DNA of 64,000 nucleotides from Lentimicrobiaceae bacterium (GTDB lineage Bacteria > Bacteroidota > Bacteroidia > Bacteroidales > UBA4417). The stretch spans positions 131,030 through 195,029 of the forward strand of contig JAPXLB010000004.1 in NCBI GenBank assembly GCA_033809755.1, read 5' to 3'. Each line of letters opens with the position of its first letter. The stretch's first letter is position 1. Positions 3,252 to 16,816 of the stretch are shown piece by piece. The position numbers were made by a program, and so were the translations under genes. The notes under the pieces were generated by a model. The model saw only the letters and a list, made by a program, of their open reading frames with translations. It did not search any database and was not told the origin of the DNA.

Positions 3252-4598
3252 TCACATTTTTCCAATATAATTAAACGGCGTAATAGCCTTTATCTCTTCT
3301 TTAACTTCGTCGCTTATTTTAAGTTTATCAACAAAATCCCACAACACTTCTTTTGAAATATGTTTACCAGTTCTGGTAAGTTTTTTCAGTGTTTCGTACG
3401 GCTCAGGATAGCCTTCTCTTCTCAGAATTGTCTGTATCGGTTCGGCAAGAACAGCCCAATTGTGGTCAAGTTCGTCCAACATTTTATCCTTGTTAATAAT
3501 CACCTTATTCAAGCCGGTAATAATGGATTTGTAGGCAATGAGTGCGTGGGCAATGCCAACTCCAATATTTCTGGTAATAGTCGAATCGGTCAAATCTCTT
3601 TGCATTCTTGAAATAGGCAATTTATTCGACATAAAAATCAATATAGCATTAGAAATTCCTAAGTTGCCTTCTGCATTCTCAAAATCTATAGGATTAACCT
3701 TGTGAGGCATGGTTGAGGAACCTGTTTCGGAAGCATTAATTTTTTGTCTGAAATACTCTCTCGAAATGTACTGCCACATGTCTTGCGATAAGTCAATGAG
3801 TATAGTATTTATGCGTTTTAGTCCGTCAAAATAAGCGCTCATGCAGTCGTAGTGCTCAATTTGTGTGGTATATTTCTGACGCACCAAATTCAGTTTATCT
3901 TTGAGAAAATTGTCGGCAAATGTATTCCAATCGATATCGGGATACGAAGCGTAGTGAGCATTAAAATTGCCGACAGCACCGCCAAATTTTGCAGTTTTAG
4001 GAATAGATGTAAGTTGTTTTAATTGAACACTAAGTCTTTCGGCAAAAACCATTATCTCTTTACCCATAGTTGTAGGCGAAGCAGGTTGTCCGTGTGTATG
4101 CGAAAGCATTGGAACGTCCTTCCATTTCTTAGCTAAATTCGTCAACTTGGTCTGAATATTTTCTATCGTCGGAATAACATTGTCGTACAAGCAGGTATAC
4201 AGCGACAAAGGAACAGCAGTATTATTAATATCCTGCGAGGTCAGTCCGAAATGTATAAATTCGCTATATTTTTTTAAGCCGATTTTTGCAAACTGTTTTT
4301 TCAAGTAGTATTCAACAGCTTTTACATCGTGATTGGTTTTAGCCTCTATCTTTTTAACTTCGGCAGCATCGGCGAAGGTAAAGTTTTCGCTTATTTTTCT
4401 GATATTAGCAATATCGTCGGGCGTAATACCTTTAAGTTGAGGTAGCGGAATTTCAGCCAATGCTATAAAGTATTCAACCTCAACATAAATCCTGAAATTA
4501 ATTAGAGCACCTTCGCTAAAAAATAACGACAAAGATTCTACCTTTTTTCTGTAACGCCCGTCAACAGGCGAAATAGCTTTTAATGTACTTAAGTCCAT
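3252..4598 (-). CDS. purB: adenylosuccinate lyase
   Basis: 448 aa. SPVDGRY, GLTSQDINNTA, HGQPASPTTMGKE and SSTMPHKVNP (lyase-1 signature) are all present. Confidence 0.95.
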   Translation of the reverse strand: MDLSTLKAISPVDGRYRKKVESLSLFFSEGALINFRIYVEVEYFIALAEIPLPQLKGITPDDIANIRKISENFTFADAAEVKKIEAKTNHDVKAVEYYLKKQFAKIGLKKYSEFIHFGLTSQDINNTAVPLSLYTCLYDNVIPTIENIQTKLTNLAKKWKDVPMLSHTHGQPASPTTMGKEIMVFAERLSVQLKQLTSIPKTAKFGGAVGNFNAHYASYPDIDWNTFADNFLKDKLNLVRQKYTTQIEHYDCMSAYFDGLKRINTILIDLSQDMWQYISREYFRQKINASETGSSTMPHKVNPIDFENAEGNLGISNAILIFMSNKLPISRMQRDLTDSTITRNIGVGIAHALIAYKSIITGLNKVIINKDKMLDELDHNWAVLAEPIQTILRREGYPEPYETLKKLTRTGKHISKEVLWDFVDKLKISDEVKEEIKAITPFNYIGKM

Positions 4599-4772
4599 GG
4601 TATTTTTTTTCCAAATGTATAAAACATTTATAATAAAAAAAGAAATTGCAATTTTTTTTAAATAAATAATGTTTTTATTTACGGATTAATGCAAAATAAA
4701 GCCGTGTAATCAGGTATTTATAAGGATTTTCGTCAACAAACGACTTTATATCTAAAATACAGATATGTTTAC

Positions 4773-4780
4773 TACATTTG
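4773..4780 (+). promoter_or_regulatory. Bacteroidota -7 box (TACATTTG) for paralog A
   Basis: Matches TAnnTTTG about 22 nt upstream of the ATG at 4803. An identical box sits in front of paralog B. Confidence 0.55.
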
Positions 4781-4802
4781 CATTGTATTTTACAATTTTG
4801 TG

Positions 4803-6101
4803 ATGATAATAGATAAAGAATATCCAGCCACGCACTCTATGTCAACAAGTTGGTTTGCTGTTGATTGCGAGGGGAATGTTGCCTTGCTTGAATTCAATGA
4901 AAATGGACCCGTACCTACAATTGTTCAAGATGAGTGTTTCGAGAGTATTATAATTGATAGGTTTATTGACAAGAGTAACAAGATGAAGAGGACTGTCCTG
5001 ACAGAAGAACAAGTAAATTTATTGGTTTCGTGTTTGGAATTTAAACCTTTTGATAACAATGTTGAACCAATCTTTCTTTTCGATAGCATATGGCGTATAA
5101 ATACCCAATTAATTGATGAGTTCAACGAAATTATAGCTGGCAAAGAGGATGAAGTATTAGTCTTATCTGAAAAAGAGGGACTTTATCATGTTGGGTATAT
5201 ATATGATAGAGGAGGAGCAGAAAACCTTGAGTGGGAATGTATGATGGAGTACTTATCAGGTCAGGAACAAAAATTTTTCGAAAAACTTTGTCAAAAAAAC
5301 TTTTTATTGTCATATACTGAATTTGGGCTGCTTCCCAGTATAGAGGGCGGAGGGTACGGAGAACAAGTTTGGTTACCAAAAGCCTTAGAAAATTTTCCAA
5401 TATTTATATATGCTCAGGAGTACATAAATCCTGCACTAAAGAGAATCCACATACCCAAATGTCCGTTAAAAGCAGGTCAGCTTACTGAAGAATGCATGGA
5501 GCTGGCACTCAAAATACCTGTTTCATTCAGAGATAGCGAACAGTTTCAAGTTCAGTTTTATTATCCTTCATCCTGGCTGGGTGGTCAAGAGTGGAAACCT
5601 TACGATTCGCGATATTGCAGATTGGAAATAAGTAAGGGTAATAAGCCTTTTGTACGTACAGGTTGTTTAGCTGTTCACCATAATACTGAATATACCAATT
5701 ATCATTATTTTGATTCCCACAATTACGATTTTCACAGTCAGGCTTATACCTTTGAACCTACGGTTGCTATTATCAAAGACGAAGCAGGCAGCATTTTTAA
5801 TAAGTTGCCTGAATACATTTTCATGTACGCTTTTGAGCTTCATTATATGGAAAGAAACGAGTATTTACAGCAACTCATCGACTATTATCGTCCATACTTG
5901 CTGGTTGTAACTGACGGAGTTTTAAGTAAACTTAAAAACGAATTTCGTATAGACGATAAAAAAATATCCTTCGGAGATGAAGAACTTCCTATTTATACAA
6001 GCGAAGAGGTAGCCCAGCGCAAGGATGAAATCCTAGCTTTAGCCAAAAAACCTTATAGAGGCAAAAAAGACCCAATTATACTTGAAAAGAAAGAAGTATA
6101 G
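4803..6101 (+). CDS. hypothetical cytoplasmic protein, paralog A of a tandem pair (no recognised domain)
   Basis: Long ORF (GTG at 4800, ATG at 4803). No signal peptide or TM segment. Its first 34 aa are identical to the ORF at 6256, and the central and C-terminal blocks are conserved (YAQEY, PVSF..EQFQ, YTFEPTV, LPEYIF.YAF, YYRPYLLVV.DGVLSK, QRKDEILALA..YRGKKDPI). Confidence 0.75.
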   Translation: MIIDKEYPATHSMSTSWFAVDCEGNVALLEFNENGPVPTIVQDECFESIIIDRFIDKSNKMKRTVLTEEQVNLLVSCLEFKPFDNNVEPIFLFDSIWRINTQLIDEFNEIIAGKEDEVLVLSEKEGLYHVGYIYDRGGAENLEWECMMEYLSGQEQKFFEKLCQKNFLLSYTEFGLLPSIEGGGYGEQVWLPKALENFPIFIYAQEYINPALKRIHIPKCPLKAGQLTEECMELALKIPVSFRDSEQFQVQFYYPSSWLGGQEWKPYDSRYCRLEISKGNKPFVRTGCLAVHHNTEYTNYHYFDSHNYDFHSQAYTFEPTVAIIKDEAGSIFNKLPEYIFMYAFELHYMERNEYLQQLIDYYRPYLLVVTDGVLSKLKNEFRIDDKKISFGDEELPIYTSEEVAQRKDEILALAKKPYRGKKDPIILEKKEV

Positions 6102-6225
6102 AAATTAGGTTTTTAGTCGTGTCTTTTCTTGTTTTCTGTATAGGAATGACAAGCTTTCTAAAATTGAGTATCTCGAACTTTTTGTTAATATTTATCTTTA
6201 TATCTCAAAATCAAGATATGTTTAC

Positions 6226-6233
6226 TACATTTG
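6226..6233 (+). promoter_or_regulatory. Bacteroidota -7 box (TACATTTG) for paralog B / radical SAM operon
   Basis: Same TAnnTTTG box within the duplicated 5' module (6196-6354 matches 4744-4901). Confidence 0.55.
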
Positions 6234-6255
6234 CATTGTATTTTACAATTTTGTG

Positions 6256-7506
6256 ATGATAATAGATAAAGAATATCCTGCCACGCACTCTATGTCAACA
6301 AGTTGGTTCGCTGTTGATTGCGAGGGAAATGTTGCCTTGCTTGAATTCAACGAAGAAGGTCCAGTGCCAACTTTTGTTCGAGAAGTGACCTTTGAAGAAA
6401 TAATACTTGAAAGGCTTGTCGATAGTAGTGGCAAAATAAGGAGGAGCATATTAACCGACGAACAAGCTCTGTCATTAGCTTCTTGTTTTGAGTTCATACC
6501 GTATGTATATTCAGATGATTTTTGTTTTTTCTTTCAAACTGTTATTCGTATTAATCCCGAATTAAAAGAAGAGTTCTACGAAGTTATAGCGGGCTTTGAA
6601 CATACAATAGTAATCTTGTCTGAAAAAGAAGGGCTGTACTTATATGATGGCTTTAAATTATCAGAGGAAGAAGAAGAAAAAATAATGTGTGATAGGCTAC
6701 ACAATAAAACGTGCATAATATCATATGCTGAATTTCGTTTAGAATGCACCGTAGAAAAGCCGGACGACTATCCCGTGTGGTTAGCCGAAGGTTTTGAAGG
6801 AATTCCTATGTACATATACGCACAAGAGTACTGGGATACTGCACTAAAGAAGATACATACGCCTAAATGTATAGTAAACGCCAGCCAGTTTGTTGAGGAG
6901 GTTAAGGAGGTGGCGTTATATTTGCCTGTTTCTTTCAAAAATGCCGAACAGTTTCAGATACCGCTTTATTATCCATCAAGATGGATGTCTGAAAGAAAAA
7001 TTAAAAATTCTGATCGTCGATACCATGATTTAAGGATAAGTAAGGGTAACGAACCATTTTTGCTTACAGCGGAATTGCCAATTATTAATAGGATGTATTG
7101 GTCGTATAGTAATACCCCTGGTCTAACTTACACTTTTGAACCTACTGTAGGTATTATCGGAGAAGACAAATATCATATTTATTTTGAATTGCCCGAATAT
7201 ATCTTCAAGTATGCTTTTGGGCTTAACTATGAGATGGGAGGCAGGAAATTATCGGAACTTTTAGAATATTATCGTCCTTACCTGTTGGTTGTTATGGATG
7301 GAGTTTTAAGCAAAATTGAGGAGCATTATCAGATAGTAGATAAAAAATTAATATATGAGGGCGAAGAGTATCCTATTTTTACAAGAGAGGAGGTAACTCA
7401 ACGCAAGGACGAAATCCTTGCTTTAGCCAGAAGGCGATACAGAGGTAAAAAAGACCCAATTGTAATTGATAATGAAGATGATAGAGATAATATCTATAGA
7501 TATTAG
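6256..7506 (+). CDS. hypothetical cytoplasmic protein, paralog B of the tandem pair
   Basis: 417-aa ORF, collinear with paralog A along its whole length and roughly half identical by eye. The N-terminal 34 aa are identical. The 3' end overlaps the radical SAM ORF. Confidence 0.75.
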   Translation: MIIDKEYPATHSMSTSWFAVDCEGNVALLEFNEEGPVPTFVREVTFEEIILERLVDSSGKIRRSILTDEQALSLASCFEFIPYVYSDDFCFFFQTVIRINPELKEEFYEVIAGFEHTIVILSEKEGLYLYDGFKLSEEEEEKIMCDRLHNKTCIISYAEFRLECTVEKPDDYPVWLAEGFEGIPMYIYAQEYWDTALKKIHTPKCIVNASQFVEEVKEVALYLPVSFKNAEQFQIPLYYPSRWMSERKIKNSDRRYHDLRISKGNEPFLLTAELPIINRMYWSYSNTPGLTYTFEPTVGIIGEDKYHIYFELPEYIFKYAFGLNYEMGGRKLSELLEYYRPYLLVVMDGVLSKIEEHYQIVDKKLIYEGEEYPIFTREEVTQRKDEILALARRRYRGKKDPIVIDNEDDRDNIYRY

Positions 7507-8224
7507 CAACTTTTGCTCAAAACAGTGTCACTTCTGTTACAACGGCAGCAACAAACAGGGTTGTTCTTTGTGGAAGCCACAGGAGGTGATTGAGTTCGGA
7601 GTGGATTGCGTAGCCAATGGCGTTAAAGCTATTTCTCTTGGAGGAGGTGAACCACTCGAATACGACGGTGTTTTCGATATTATTTCTGCACTTCGCGAGG
7701 TCTGCTATTTAACAATTACTTCAAACGGTTTGCCTCTTGAAGATAGCCACGTGTACAGAAAATTGTTGGAAGCTAAGCCAGATAAAATTCATATCAGCAT
7801 TCACTACCCACATGTAGTTTCGGAAGTGAAACGTGTTATGCGTCAAATAAAACAGCTGAAGGAAACGGCTATTAAGCCTGGCGTTAATCTAATGGTTTCA
7901 AAAGACCAGCTTGCAGCCAGCCGAGAGGTTTATAGCCAGCTACGTAAAATATTATCTTCGGAACAAATTATCCTGATACCGCAACGCTTCTCAAATATCC
8001 CAACGCCCAAAGAGGTTGGGTCAATTTCGGGCGGTGAGCCTTTTCAAAGTCCATCTTGCTTAACAAAATGCGAAGCACCTACTCACTTTTGTTCGATTAC
8101 TTGGGATAAACACGCATCGTATTGCAGTTTTTCAAGTGGCAAAGCACCTCTTGAAATGCTAAATTACGAAGGACTACGCAATGCACTGAGGAAAAGTCAA
8201 TTTATTAGTTGTATGAAATGTTGA
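7466..8224 (+). CDS. small radical SAM protein with Cys-rich C-terminal tail
   Basis: CSKQCHFC (CX3CX2C) at residues 17-24 and the GGGEPLEY SAM-binding motif. C-terminal cysteines lie in CLTKCEAPTHFCSITWDKHASYC and in the final CMKC. The start overlaps paralog B by 41 nt; alternative Met codons at 7472 and 7478 still overlap. Confidence 0.8.
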   Translation: MIMKMIEIISIDISNFCSKQCHFCYNGSNKQGCSLWKPQEVIEFGVDCVANGVKAISLGGGEPLEYDGVFDIISALREVCYLTITSNGLPLEDSHVYRKLLEAKPDKIHISIHYPHVVSEVKRVMRQIKQLKETAIKPGVNLMVSKDQLAASREVYSQLRKILSSEQIILIPQRFSNIPTPKEVGSISGGEPFQSPSCLTKCEAPTHFCSITWDKHASYCSFSSGKAPLEMLNYEGLRNALRKSQFISCMKC

Positions 8225-8341
8225 AACAATAAACTAGAGTTTTGAGAGTTTGACTGTTAGCCTAAGCGCAACCAGCTCTCAATAAAACAAGAAATAAAAC
8301 CATTAAGTGTAATTGAAAAAATAACTTTAAAAATAAATATT

Positions 8342-8881
8342 ATGAAAAATATCAGATTTTTGTTTCTTTCGGTATTGCTCCTGGTTGGGTTTACTCTATC
8401 TAGCCAAAAGTACTTCTGGGAAGCCTACTACTTTAATGAAGATGAGAATCTTGAAATTGAGTACATATTAGAATTTAATGAATATGGTGAACCTACCATA
8501 TTTATAGTAAATGATGAGGATATCATCTGTGAGTTGGTAGGATATTATGATGAAGAATATGAAGTGACAGAATTATACTTTTATGATGAAGAACTGGGCA
8601 GAGAAGGTATGTACTTACAACACTTCTACTACGTAAGGGGAGATGAACTTTATTTACAATCATATAGCCCAAAACTTAAGGATTTTTATCTGTCGATAAA
8701 AATAGTTGGATTTTATAATCTTGGGTACTATAAAGATGATTTTAAATTAATACGCTATGATGAAAATAAGGATATTGTCCACGAGTTCGAACTAAAAATA
8801 GCTCATAAAAATATTATTACTATACGTAATGAAGACGGTAGGTATGTCGGGTTTGTATTAAGGAAACAGTTTTGTGAGTGA
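8342..8881 (+). CDS. hypothetical secreted protein (signal peptide, Tyr/Glu-rich)
   Basis: N-terminal MKNIRFLFLSVLLLVGFTLSSQ looks like a signal peptide. No family recognised. A strong hairpin follows the ORF. Confidence 0.6.
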   Translation: MKNIRFLFLSVLLLVGFTLSSQKYFWEAYYFNEDENLEIEYILEFNEYGEPTIFIVNDEDIICELVGYYDEEYEVTELYFYDEELGREGMYLQHFYYVRGDELYLQSYSPKLKDFYLSIKIVGFYNLGYYKDDFKLIRYDENKDIVHEFELKIAHKNIITIRNEDGRYVGFVLRKQFCE

Positions 8882-8951
8882 CGTCAATAAATGGAAACAG
8901 AACAGTATGAGTAAGATGCTTAAAACGTAAAATTTTTAAAATTACTAAAAT

Positions 8952-8988
8952 AAATAGTCCCGATTGCTTACGGCAATCGGGACTATTT
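8952..8988. terminator. bidirectional hairpin terminator
   Basis: AAATAGTCCCGATTGC-loop-GCAATCGGGACTATTT is a perfect 16-bp stem, A-rich on the left and T-rich on the right. It lies between the 8342-8881 ORF and the 3' end of tRNA-Lys. Confidence 0.8.
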
Positions 8989-9011
8989 GTTTGTATGGCT
9001 TACGCCTCTAG

Positions 9012-9084
9012 TGATCCGCCTGAGGCTCGAACTCAGGACCCCATCCTTAAAAGGGATGTGCTCTACCTACTGAGCTAGCGAATC
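9012..9084 (-). tRNA. tRNA-Lys (anticodon UUU)
   Basis: The reverse complement reads GATTCGCTAGCTCAGTAGGTAGAGCACATCCCTTTTAAGGATGGGGTCCTGAGTTCGAGCCTCAGGCGGATCA. It folds as a cloverleaf with anticodon loop CTTTTAA and T-loop GTTCGAG. CCA is not encoded. Confidence 0.9.
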
Positions 9085-9135: not shown

Positions 9136-9196
9136 TATTAAATTCAAAATTTTTCTAAATACCTGTAATAATAAGCTTTGCAGAATTGCTAATTTA

Positions 9197-13689: not shown

Positions 13690-16568
<2,879 letters not shown>

Positions 16569-16656: not shown

Positions 16657-16733
16657 TGGTGGAGAATAACGGATTCGAACCGTTGACCCCCTGCGTGCAA
16701 GGCAGGTGCTCTAGCCAGCTGAGCTAATTCCCC
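16657..16733 (-). tRNA. tRNA-Ala (anticodon UGC), in the 16S-23S spacer
   Basis: The reverse complement reads GGGGAATTAGCTCAGCTGGCTAGAGCACCTGCCTTGCACGCAGGGGGTCAACGGTTCGAATCCGTTATTCTCCACCA. It has the G3:U70 identity pair, and CCA is encoded. Confidence 0.93.
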
Positions 16734-16742
16734 AAAACGATG

Positions 16743-16816
16743 TAGTCCCGCGCAGAGTTGAACTGCGGACCCCTACATTATCAGTGTAGTGCTCTAACCA
16801 ACTGAGCTACGGGACT
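16743..16816 (-). tRNA. tRNA-Ile (anticodon GAU), in the 16S-23S spacer
   Basis: The reverse complement reads AGTCCCGTAGCTCAGTTGGTTAGAGCACTACACTGATAATGTAGGGGTCCGCAGTTCAACTCTGCGCGGGACTA. Confidence 0.9.

Follow-up and report, generated by a model that had tools for sequence, protein, structure and literature searches.

Several radical S-adenosylmethionine (SAM) maturases are encoded next to their client protein, as in the pairs anSME/sulfatase, SkfB/SkfA, SuiB/SuiA, and QhpD/QhpC. A uracil-DNA glycosylase (UDG; COG1573) is paired with COG4277 in an operon of two genes under SOS control, known from Bacteroidetes and other phyla (PMC8565304). Here, we describe a gene pair comparable to both in a 64,000-nucleotide stretch of the genome of a Lentimicrobiaceae bacterium (assembly GCA_033809755.1, contig JAPXLB010000004.1, positions 131,030 to 195,029; hereafter, the window, whose first letter is position 1). 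Two paralogous genes, A and B, which together define what we call the partner family, are followed by a single gene for a small radical SAM enzyme. An earlier note, made from the letters of the window alone, had proposed an undescribed system in which paralog and enzyme act jointly; this core idea holds, whereas the boundary that it drew around the cassette and its argument for a genomic island fail. The best explanation of the data is a self-contained, horizontally shuffled module of two components, namely, one to three fast-evolving cytoplasmic partners and one small enzyme. It probably represents either an enzyme with its clients or a conflict system.

To define the module, loci with partner-family genes were collected from GTDB contigs (one genome per species), whose open reading frames (ORFs) were searched with the window proteins. 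Of the 79 loci in this set, 69 have an enzyme homologue (E values of 1e-74 to 1e-130) directly downstream of the partner on the same strand, and the partner stop and the enzyme start usually overlap by a few nucleotides. Six of the 10 loci without an enzyme end at a contig edge, and of the four with room for one, two (L013 and L053) come from metagenome-assembled genomes (MAGs) in which a complete module lies on a different contig (L004 and L062). The reverse test, anchored on the enzyme on long contigs, found the partner directly upstream in all seven distinct contexts. In 11 loci, two or three partner genes stand in tandem ahead of one enzyme gene. Partner and enzyme are a translationally coupled, obligate pair, with one enzyme for several partners. 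The conserved adjacency with its small overlap makes it very likely that paralog and enzyme are co-produced and act together, as the earlier note had suggested from one locus.

Both families occur in human-gut, mouse-gut, and rumen Bacteroidales. A 263-amino-acid database protein, P0058, joins partner residues 1 to 58 to the enzyme core, past the expected position of the cluster-binding CX3CX2C motif; it is a natural deletion and probably a pseudogene, and it independently confirms the partner/enzyme adjacency in another lineage. Three contigs with the module (L005, L022, and L028) are binned as Firmicutes (Lachnospiraceae, Acetatifactor, and Anaerovoracaceae), and in L022 the enzyme gene lies upstream of the partner. 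Either mis-binning or a real transfer beyond the Bacteroidales could account for these cases.

The module in the window has the following features, all on the plus strand.

4744 to 4799: predicted promoter and 5' leader block of paralog A, about 95% identical to 6197 to 6252.
4800 to 6101: paralog A, of the "EYPATHSM" partner family, 433 amino acids from GTG (annotated from ATG 4803, 432 amino acids).
4818 to 4853: N-terminal tail motif of A, residues 7 to 18, EYPATHSMSTSW, from the family alignment.
5727 to 6068: C-terminal alpha/beta domain of A (PT...P-Y-L-L-V-V...YP...PYRG), optional in the family and homologous to B residues 290 to 400.
6197 to 6252: second promoter/5' leader copy, upstream of B, a duplicate of 4744 to 4799.
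6253 to 7506: paralog B, partner family, 417 amino acids from GTG (annotated from ATG 6256, 416 amino acids).
6271 to 6306: N-terminal tail motif of B, residues 7 to 18, from the family alignment.
7120 to 7452: C-terminal alpha/beta domain of B, residues ~290 to 400, missing from short-form members.
7478 to 8224: gene for the small radical SAM enzyme, 248 amino acids from ATG 7478 (alternative starts, TTG 7466 and ATG 7472).
7514 to 7537: CX3CX2C (C13, C17, and C20), the radical SAM [4Fe-4S] site, present in 36 of 36 aligned members.
7640 to 7654: GGGEP SAM-binding motif, invariant in the alignment.
8057 to 8212: C-terminal Cys-rich segment of the enzyme, from the family alignment, with a putative auxiliary Fe-S cluster.

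The four same-strand ORFs that the earlier note had placed between purB and tRNA-Lys are all present, and most of what it said of them is borne out. A and B are paralogous (50% identity over the full length; BLASTP E = 5e-142), with no hydrophobic stretch (maximum Kyte-Doolittle 19-mer values of 0.7 to 0.9) and no Walker A motif. Their starts in public annotation are ATG codons, one codon after the GTG. The third ORF encodes a radical SAM protein, with CX3CX2C and GGGEP in place, and the product of the fourth, a small secreted protein, has a signal-peptide-like N terminus. The overlap of the enzyme gene with B is real, but its reported length of 41 nucleotides and the reported enzyme size of 252 amino acids are not: alignment of 36 family members sets the start at ATG 7478 (MIEIISID...), giving 248 residues and an overlap of 29 nucleotides, and the longer overlap applies only to the upstream TTG 7466 start.

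The four-gene cassette itself had to be rejected. None of the 79 loci encodes a homologue of the small secreted protein (179 amino acids), which is found beside the module only in genomes at least 90% identical to this one; it is rich in Tyr, Glu, and Asp, and searches of Pfam, NCBIfam, PADLOC, and PHROGs gave no match. Since this protein is not conserved and all-against-all clustering of the neighbours revealed no third conserved gene, the conserved unit consists of a single enzyme and at least one partner.

The enzyme matches PF04055 with an E value of 4.9e-15 (56.5 bits against a gathering cutoff of 29.5). Its family, clustered at 90% identity, runs to at least 744 clusters of proteins with 245 to 250 amino acids that are about 57% identical to the window enzyme. 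Positions invariant in the 36 aligned members include C13, C17, C20, the GGGEP motif, C44, and, within the last 55 residues, C194, C198, C216, and C245; C205 is conserved in most and replaced by Ala or Val in a few. We infer from the alignment that C194, C198, C216, and C245 may ligate an auxiliary Fe-S cluster. A check for SPASM and twitch domains gave no SPASM match in Pfam, a marginal match to Fer4_12, and a match to the twitch enzyme SpeY over only 148 columns. No NCBIfam model comes near its cutoff. The best MoaA model reaches 46.7 bits against 231 (others, 45.4 against 325.25 and 38.3 against 284.05), with the alignment restricted to the N-terminal 146 residues, and the viperin model NF038283 fails with 26.7 bits against 180. 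TIGR03916, to which the radical SAM protein COG4277 corresponds, is absent from the 25 best NCBIfam matches, so that any match would have an E value above 0.004. In PADLOC-DB 2.0, A, B, and the small protein have no match, and the enzyme has only a partial one, to pVip, over residues 9 to 113.

Among solved proteins, the sactipeptide maturase SkfB is closest in sequence to the enzyme (E = 1.7e-6). The AlphaFold model of the enzyme (pLDDT, 89.1) matches 62 PDB chains at E values no higher than 1e-3; each of the 50 top matches listed is a radical SAM enzyme. By E value, the best Foldseek match is MoaA (5.9e-10); by TM-score, it is a viperin-like protein (0.77), with the whole chain covered. SuiB, EpeE, anSME, BlsE, SkfB, and PqqE are also matched, and the E values of MoaA, viperin, SuiB, EpeE, anSME, and SkfB lie between 1e-8 and 1e-10. 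The modeled fold places the enzyme in the MoaA, viperin, and SPASM/twitch neighbourhood, a position compatible with either a nucleotide or a peptide/protein substrate.

The partner family is far more variable, its 45 aligned members sharing about 25% identity with B against the ~57% seen for the enzyme. A is identical to database protein P0004, and B is 99% identical to P0001. A word-indexed search returned 58 relatives, none informatively named, all from Bacteroidales MAGs. When 1.84 billion representatives were searched with a profile, at least 1,217 clusters (50% identity) had E values of 1e-3 or below, 218 of them 1e-30 or below. The earlier note could assign the paralogs to no family, and this still stands: A and B have no match in Pfam, NCBIfam, PADLOC, or PHROGs, the 45 members scanned singly against Pfam yield nothing significant, and the family profile finds only chance-level matches among PDB sequences. 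The AlphaFold model of B, built from the 45-sequence alignment, has a mean pLDDT of 89.5 and a pTM of 0.89, and Foldseek searches of PDB and BFVD with it returned no match better than E = 0.1. The family apparently has a new fold, to judge from this model.

Partners come in more than one size. Long forms have ~400 to 480 amino acids. Short forms, of ~300 amino acids, end near profile position 275 and lack the C-terminal alpha/beta domain, with a short C-terminal helix kept, and a third C-terminal variant is also found. Occasional fusions carry BspA-type leucine-rich repeat (LRR) or ankyrin-like extensions; in one database protein, P0183, an LRR_5 domain is fused to the partner.

Conservation in the partner is concentrated at its N terminus. 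The residues invariant in the 45 members are E7, Y8, P9, A10, T11, H12, S13, M14, T16, W18, D22, G25, G36, and P37 in the N-terminal part and P204, F228, P297, P342, and G398 elsewhere. Almost all the polar ones fall within residues 7 to 22, and the other invariants are Pro, Phe, or Gly. Residues 6 to 18 form a tail with the consensus K-EYPATHSM-x-T-x-W, which contains no Cys; indeed, the family has no invariant Cys at all. In the model of B, the tail precedes the first beta-strand and is the part predicted with the lowest confidence (pLDDT of 50 for residues 1 to 10 and 79 for residues 11 to 20, compared with 92 to 98 for residues 21 to 80). A segment that is invariant yet poorly ordered in a model is expected of one that becomes ordered only once it is bound to a partner.

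We tentatively favour a reading that we would not yet call probable: the enzyme modifies this tail post-translationally, and the variable body decides the target of the modified protein. The enzyme would bind the invariant, flexible N-terminal tail (residues 6 to 18) of each client, and 5'-deoxyadenosyl radical chemistry would install a modification there. The client body, with its optional UDG-like domain (see below), LRR or ankyrin-like fusions, and alternative C termini, would then supply specificity for a target or ligand. The tail as substrate, the chemistry, and the role of the modified protein are all inferred. Without a Cys in the tail, thioether formation of the kind seen with sactipeptides or anSME-Cys is excluded; epimerization, Ser/Thr oxidation, or C-C and C-O cross-links at Y8, H12, M14, and W18 are candidates, as a matter of speculation. 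The most likely arena is conflict and defence or a nucleic-acid-directed activity.

Several points weigh against modification of the tail. It is deduced rather than directly observed, the enzyme has no RiPP recognition element (RRE) domain of the kind known from maturases of RiPPs (peptides made on the ribosome and modified after translation), and its structure is at least as close to MoaA and viperin as to the peptide maturases. A tail that docks onto the enzyme or completes its active site would yield the same pattern of conservation. The variable body, the repeat fusions, and the defence-island contexts described below would fit a model with the partner as specificity subunit equally well.

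In a second reading, possible although somewhat doubtful, the enzyme would act on a nucleotide or on DNA or RNA, in defence or in DNA modification or repair, and the partner would not be its substrate but a fast-evolving sensor, specificity factor, or effector that docks via its tail. With a degenerate UDG-like domain, long-form partners would then touch nucleic acid. MoaA as the best Foldseek match by E value and a viperin-like protein as the best by TM-score, over the whole chain, agree with such a substrate, as does the precedent of the SOS-regulated COG1573/COG4277 operon (PMC8565304). In NCBIfam, however, the enzyme scores well under the cutoffs of the MoaA and viperin models, PADLOC is blank for the partner, and the pVip match of the enzyme is confined to the generic N-terminal 100 residues.

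The UDG signals are weak but recur. Foldseek with the model of B lists family-4 UDGs among the top matches in both PDB and BFVD at a probability of ~0.6, with E values of 0.2 to 0.6 and a target-normalized TM-score of ~0.3. UDG is also the sole Pfam family matched by more than one partner member (2 of 45 full-length partners and 3 of 27 isolated C-terminal domains; best E, 0.021). Alignment to a family-4 UDG alignment with hhalign gave a P value of 0.008 and a probability of only 5%; it pairs the partner's helix-strand "C..YLE....P.VIII" and its "YP.F" with the UDG Fe-S-ligand helix, the "P.IIV.LG" strand, and the "FPMFHPS" motif B. In roughly half of the long forms, such as P0015, P0028, and L071 7989-9449, C-x(2-9)-C-x2-C occurs just before the C-terminal domain, at the position of the family-4 UDG CxxC ligands; this motif could be a Zn or Fe-S site. 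A and B of the window do not have it. A Cys in the following helix was seen in 23 of 54 members with the motif and in 8 of 53 without it, counts that ignore kinship. A degenerate UDG-like fold for the long-form C-terminal domain is plausible, if only narrowly the better bet. On the other side, the UDG catalytic motifs GE(A/G)PG (motif A) and HPS (motif B) are not conserved in the partner, and the module can do without the domain, as short forms that lack it are still paired with the enzyme.

The genomic setting bears on the same question. The module is accessory, as the earlier note had supposed, and its chromosomal site differs even among the closest relatives: the same species in another assembly (L085) has the arrangement of the window, while in near relatives the module lies between a sensor kinase gene and recO (L086) or between recJ-recQ and a type I restriction-modification (R-M) system with RhuM (L080 to L083). 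Four further contexts are defence or mobile-element islands, with GmrSD, HNH, SIR2_2, Fic, and RhuM (L088); UvrD, an integrase, Thoeris ThsA/ThsB, and BrxL (L171); WYL, ADP-ribosylglycohydrolase, LRR_5, NUDIX, relaxase, and Rep3 (L173); and WYL, HIRAN, SIR2, and PBECR3 (L175). Within 8 kb of the module, raw counts over the 79 loci are 14 for WYL regulators, 11 for HIRAN proteins, and 9 to 13 for BspA-type LRR. These contexts favour a nucleic-acid-directed or defensive role. Against it, the neighbours at positions +/-1 and +/-2 (Pfam; for +/-1 also PADLOC; raw counts) are mostly housekeeping or miscellaneous, with scattered conflict families (WYL, nSTAND3, AAA_14/DUF4143, SLFN helicase, and Fic), and the module was not found in IMG/VR, among INPHARED phages, or among PLSDB plasmids, with one metagenomic context showing relaxase and Rep3. 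Overall, the association of the module with defence is suggestive.

Two recurrent neighbourhoods were noted in these islands. A WYL(-WCX) regulator gene near the module (L024, L031, L032, L036, L047, L052, L054, L055, L056, L064, L068, L073, L075, L078, L173, and L175) is often directly followed by a small HIRAN-domain gene, and this recurrence may be the sign of one particular kind of variable island in Bacteroidales of the rumen and gut. In L040, L052, L056, and L073, a trio of LRR_5, an AAA ATPase (AAA plus AAA_lid_6, with weak nSTAND3), and LRR_5 stands directly upstream of the partner; together with the P0183 fusion, it hints at a larger optional system.

A further possibility, which we think unlikely, is a new class of adaptor-steered conflict or immunity system in which a minimal radical SAM enzyme is armed by swappable, fast-diversifying adaptors that share an invariant N-terminal "plug" for its active site. 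The adaptor body (UDG-like, LRR- or ankyrin-fused, or other) would recognize the invader, and the chemistry would strike either the invader or the plug as a switch. To our knowledge, no radical SAM logic with interchangeable adaptors has been described.

It is quite improbable that the partner is an oversized precursor whose tail is cross-linked and then excised to give a peptide-derived cofactor or natural product, in the manner of pyrroloquinoline quinone or mycofactocin. The invariant tail is rich in residues that take part in known radical SAM cross-links (E, Y, H, S, M, T, and W), several precursor paralogs per maturase are typical of RiPP loci, and the closest relatives of the enzyme include SkfB, PqqE, and SuiB. 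Yet no conserved protease, transporter, RRE, or tailoring gene lies nearby, the partner is predicted to be a well-folded protein of 300 to 480 amino acids rather than a short peptide, and its conserved part sits at the extreme N terminus with no recognizable split into leader and core.

Finally, we reject a glycyl-radical enzyme and its activase, with the radical on the invariant Gly of the partner's C-terminal PYRG, as almost certainly wrong: the size and N-terminal cluster position of the enzyme resemble those of PflA and NrdG, and Y396, R397, and G398, ~20 residues from the long-form C terminus, are fully or almost invariant, but the enzyme also follows short forms that lack the PYRG domain, no Cys that could serve as a thiyl radical is invariant in the partner, its model has no match to a glycyl-radical-enzyme barrel, and the weak NCBIfam match to NrdG2 reaches only 29 bits against a cutoff of 131.

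Returning to the locus, the two paralogs share more than their coding sequence. Positions 4744 to 4900 and 6197 to 6353, which cover 57 nucleotides upstream and about the first 100 coding nucleotides, are 95 to 97% identical in DNA, compared with ~30% further upstream and ~60% deeper into the genes. The boundary at 4744 given in the earlier note is the edge of this near-identical block. By our reading of the sequence, the leader is a predicted promoter: that of A contains a Bacteroidetes-type TAnnTTTG element (TAcaTTTG), duplicated upstream of B. Rfam gave no riboswitch or other RNA element for the duplicated leader; the tRNA was the sole match. Near-identical promoter, leader, and first ~100 nucleotides (93 to 97% DNA identity) also occur in L020/L021 and L075/L078, that is, in some tandem loci and not in all. 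Homogenized 5' ends of tandem paralogs suggest gene conversion or a nucleotide-level constraint.

Around the module, the window contains the following features.

3252 to 4598, minus strand: purB, matching the NCBIfam adenylosuccinate lyase model with 639.9 bits.
8342 to 8881, plus strand: small signal-peptide protein, 179 amino acids, a lineage-specific neighbour outside the conserved module.
8948 to 8992, no strand assigned: palindromic, terminator-like hairpin that closes the same-strand gene run before tRNA-Lys.
9011 to 9084, minus strand: tRNA-Lys(UUU), adjoining the hairpin.

Beside tRNA-Lys, where the earlier note had placed a strong terminator, a terminator-like hairpin is indeed present, with inverted-repeat arms of 20 nucleotides and, in the terminator scan, a 16-bp stem. 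The insertion of an island at this tRNA is another matter, and we rejected a tRNA-linked integrative element. The recombinase adjacent to the module passes the XerD equivalog cutoff (347.2 bits against 329.6) and is therefore housekeeping. The 27-mer at the tRNA 3' end occurs once in the window, even with three mismatches allowed, so that there is no second copy to serve as an att repeat, and the GC content at the locus shows no anomaly. A comparison of the purB site in relatives, for presence or absence of the cassette, yielded little: the nearest purB loci in metagenomes are only 57 to 63% identical and have zero synteny with the window locus; an exact-match look-up of PurB gave only one 2.4-kb contig.

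Two further observations concern the surrounding DNA. A 20-nucleotide inverted repeat (4711 to 4730 and 9146 to 9165; 85% complementary) flanks the cassette and tRNA-Lys and is probably due to chance, because the region is AT rich. Further along, tRNA-Ala(UGC) and tRNA-Ile(GAU) are adjacent on the minus strand at 16657 to 16816, a pairing that indicates an rRNA operon spacer; because of it, the long ORFs at 13815 to 14273 are probably spurious ORFs within rRNA.

Neither family has an annotation or a Pfam or NCBIfam model, and the partner is without a solved or predicted structural relative. The strict pairing and the invariant, accessible tail place this among the more tractable of the unknown radical SAM systems. 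As a defence system, it would add radical chemistry with swappable adaptors to the immunity of anaerobes that dominate the gut; an action on DNA would illuminate the recurrent and long-unexplained link between radical SAM and UDG-like proteins. A full-text literature search found no description of the pair, and Pfam, NCBIfam, PADLOC, and PHROGs contain neither family.

Compared with anSME/sulfatase, SkfB/SkfA, SuiB/SuiA, and QhpD/QhpC, the module has in common the CX3CX2C motif with a C-terminal Cys-rich segment and a client gene that adjoins the enzyme gene, with one enzyme here for several clients. SkfB is the nearest solved relative, and SuiB, EpeE, anSME, SkfB, and PqqE are structural neighbours. 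The differences lie on both sides of the pair. The enzyme, at ~248 amino acids, has no RRE and no full SPASM signature, and the client is a protein of 300 to 480 amino acids with an apparently new fold, no Cys in the tail, and no leader/core organization. With respect to anSME/sulfatase in particular, neither Pfam nor NCBIfam has a match for the partner, and the C/S-x-P/A-x-R motif is missing from the tail. With respect to RiPP maturases, the precursor here would be a folded protein of 300 to 480 amino acids, and a 248-amino-acid enzyme leaves no room for an RRE.

Viperin/pVip and MoaA provide the best structural matches (TM-score, 0.77, and E value, 5.9e-10, respectively), and some loci of the module lie in defence islands. 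However, pVip acts alone, whereas the enzyme here is paired with a partner, and the C-terminal Cys pattern of MoaA differs from that of the enzyme. The COG1573/COG4277 operon, a putative DNA repair or modification pair, shares the two-gene design in which a radical SAM protein is joined by one of UDG fold, the long-form partner here being weakly UDG-like. It differs in that its enzyme has ~400 amino acids rather than ~250, with TIGR03916 above an E value of 0.004 for the enzyme of the module, and in that the partner has no significant UDG match in NCBIfam or Pfam: the UDG motifs are degenerate, the domain is optional, and the N-terminal tail has no counterpart. The HsdS subunit of type I R-M systems offers an organizational analogy only, with a conserved enzyme, a diversified partner, and tandem paralogs with homogenized 5' ends, and with no relation in sequence or structure. 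That a radical SAM enzyme has its own co-encoded protein is a known theme; what is new is the partner family and its apparent fold, the invariant tail, the minimal enzyme, and the many-to-one organization.

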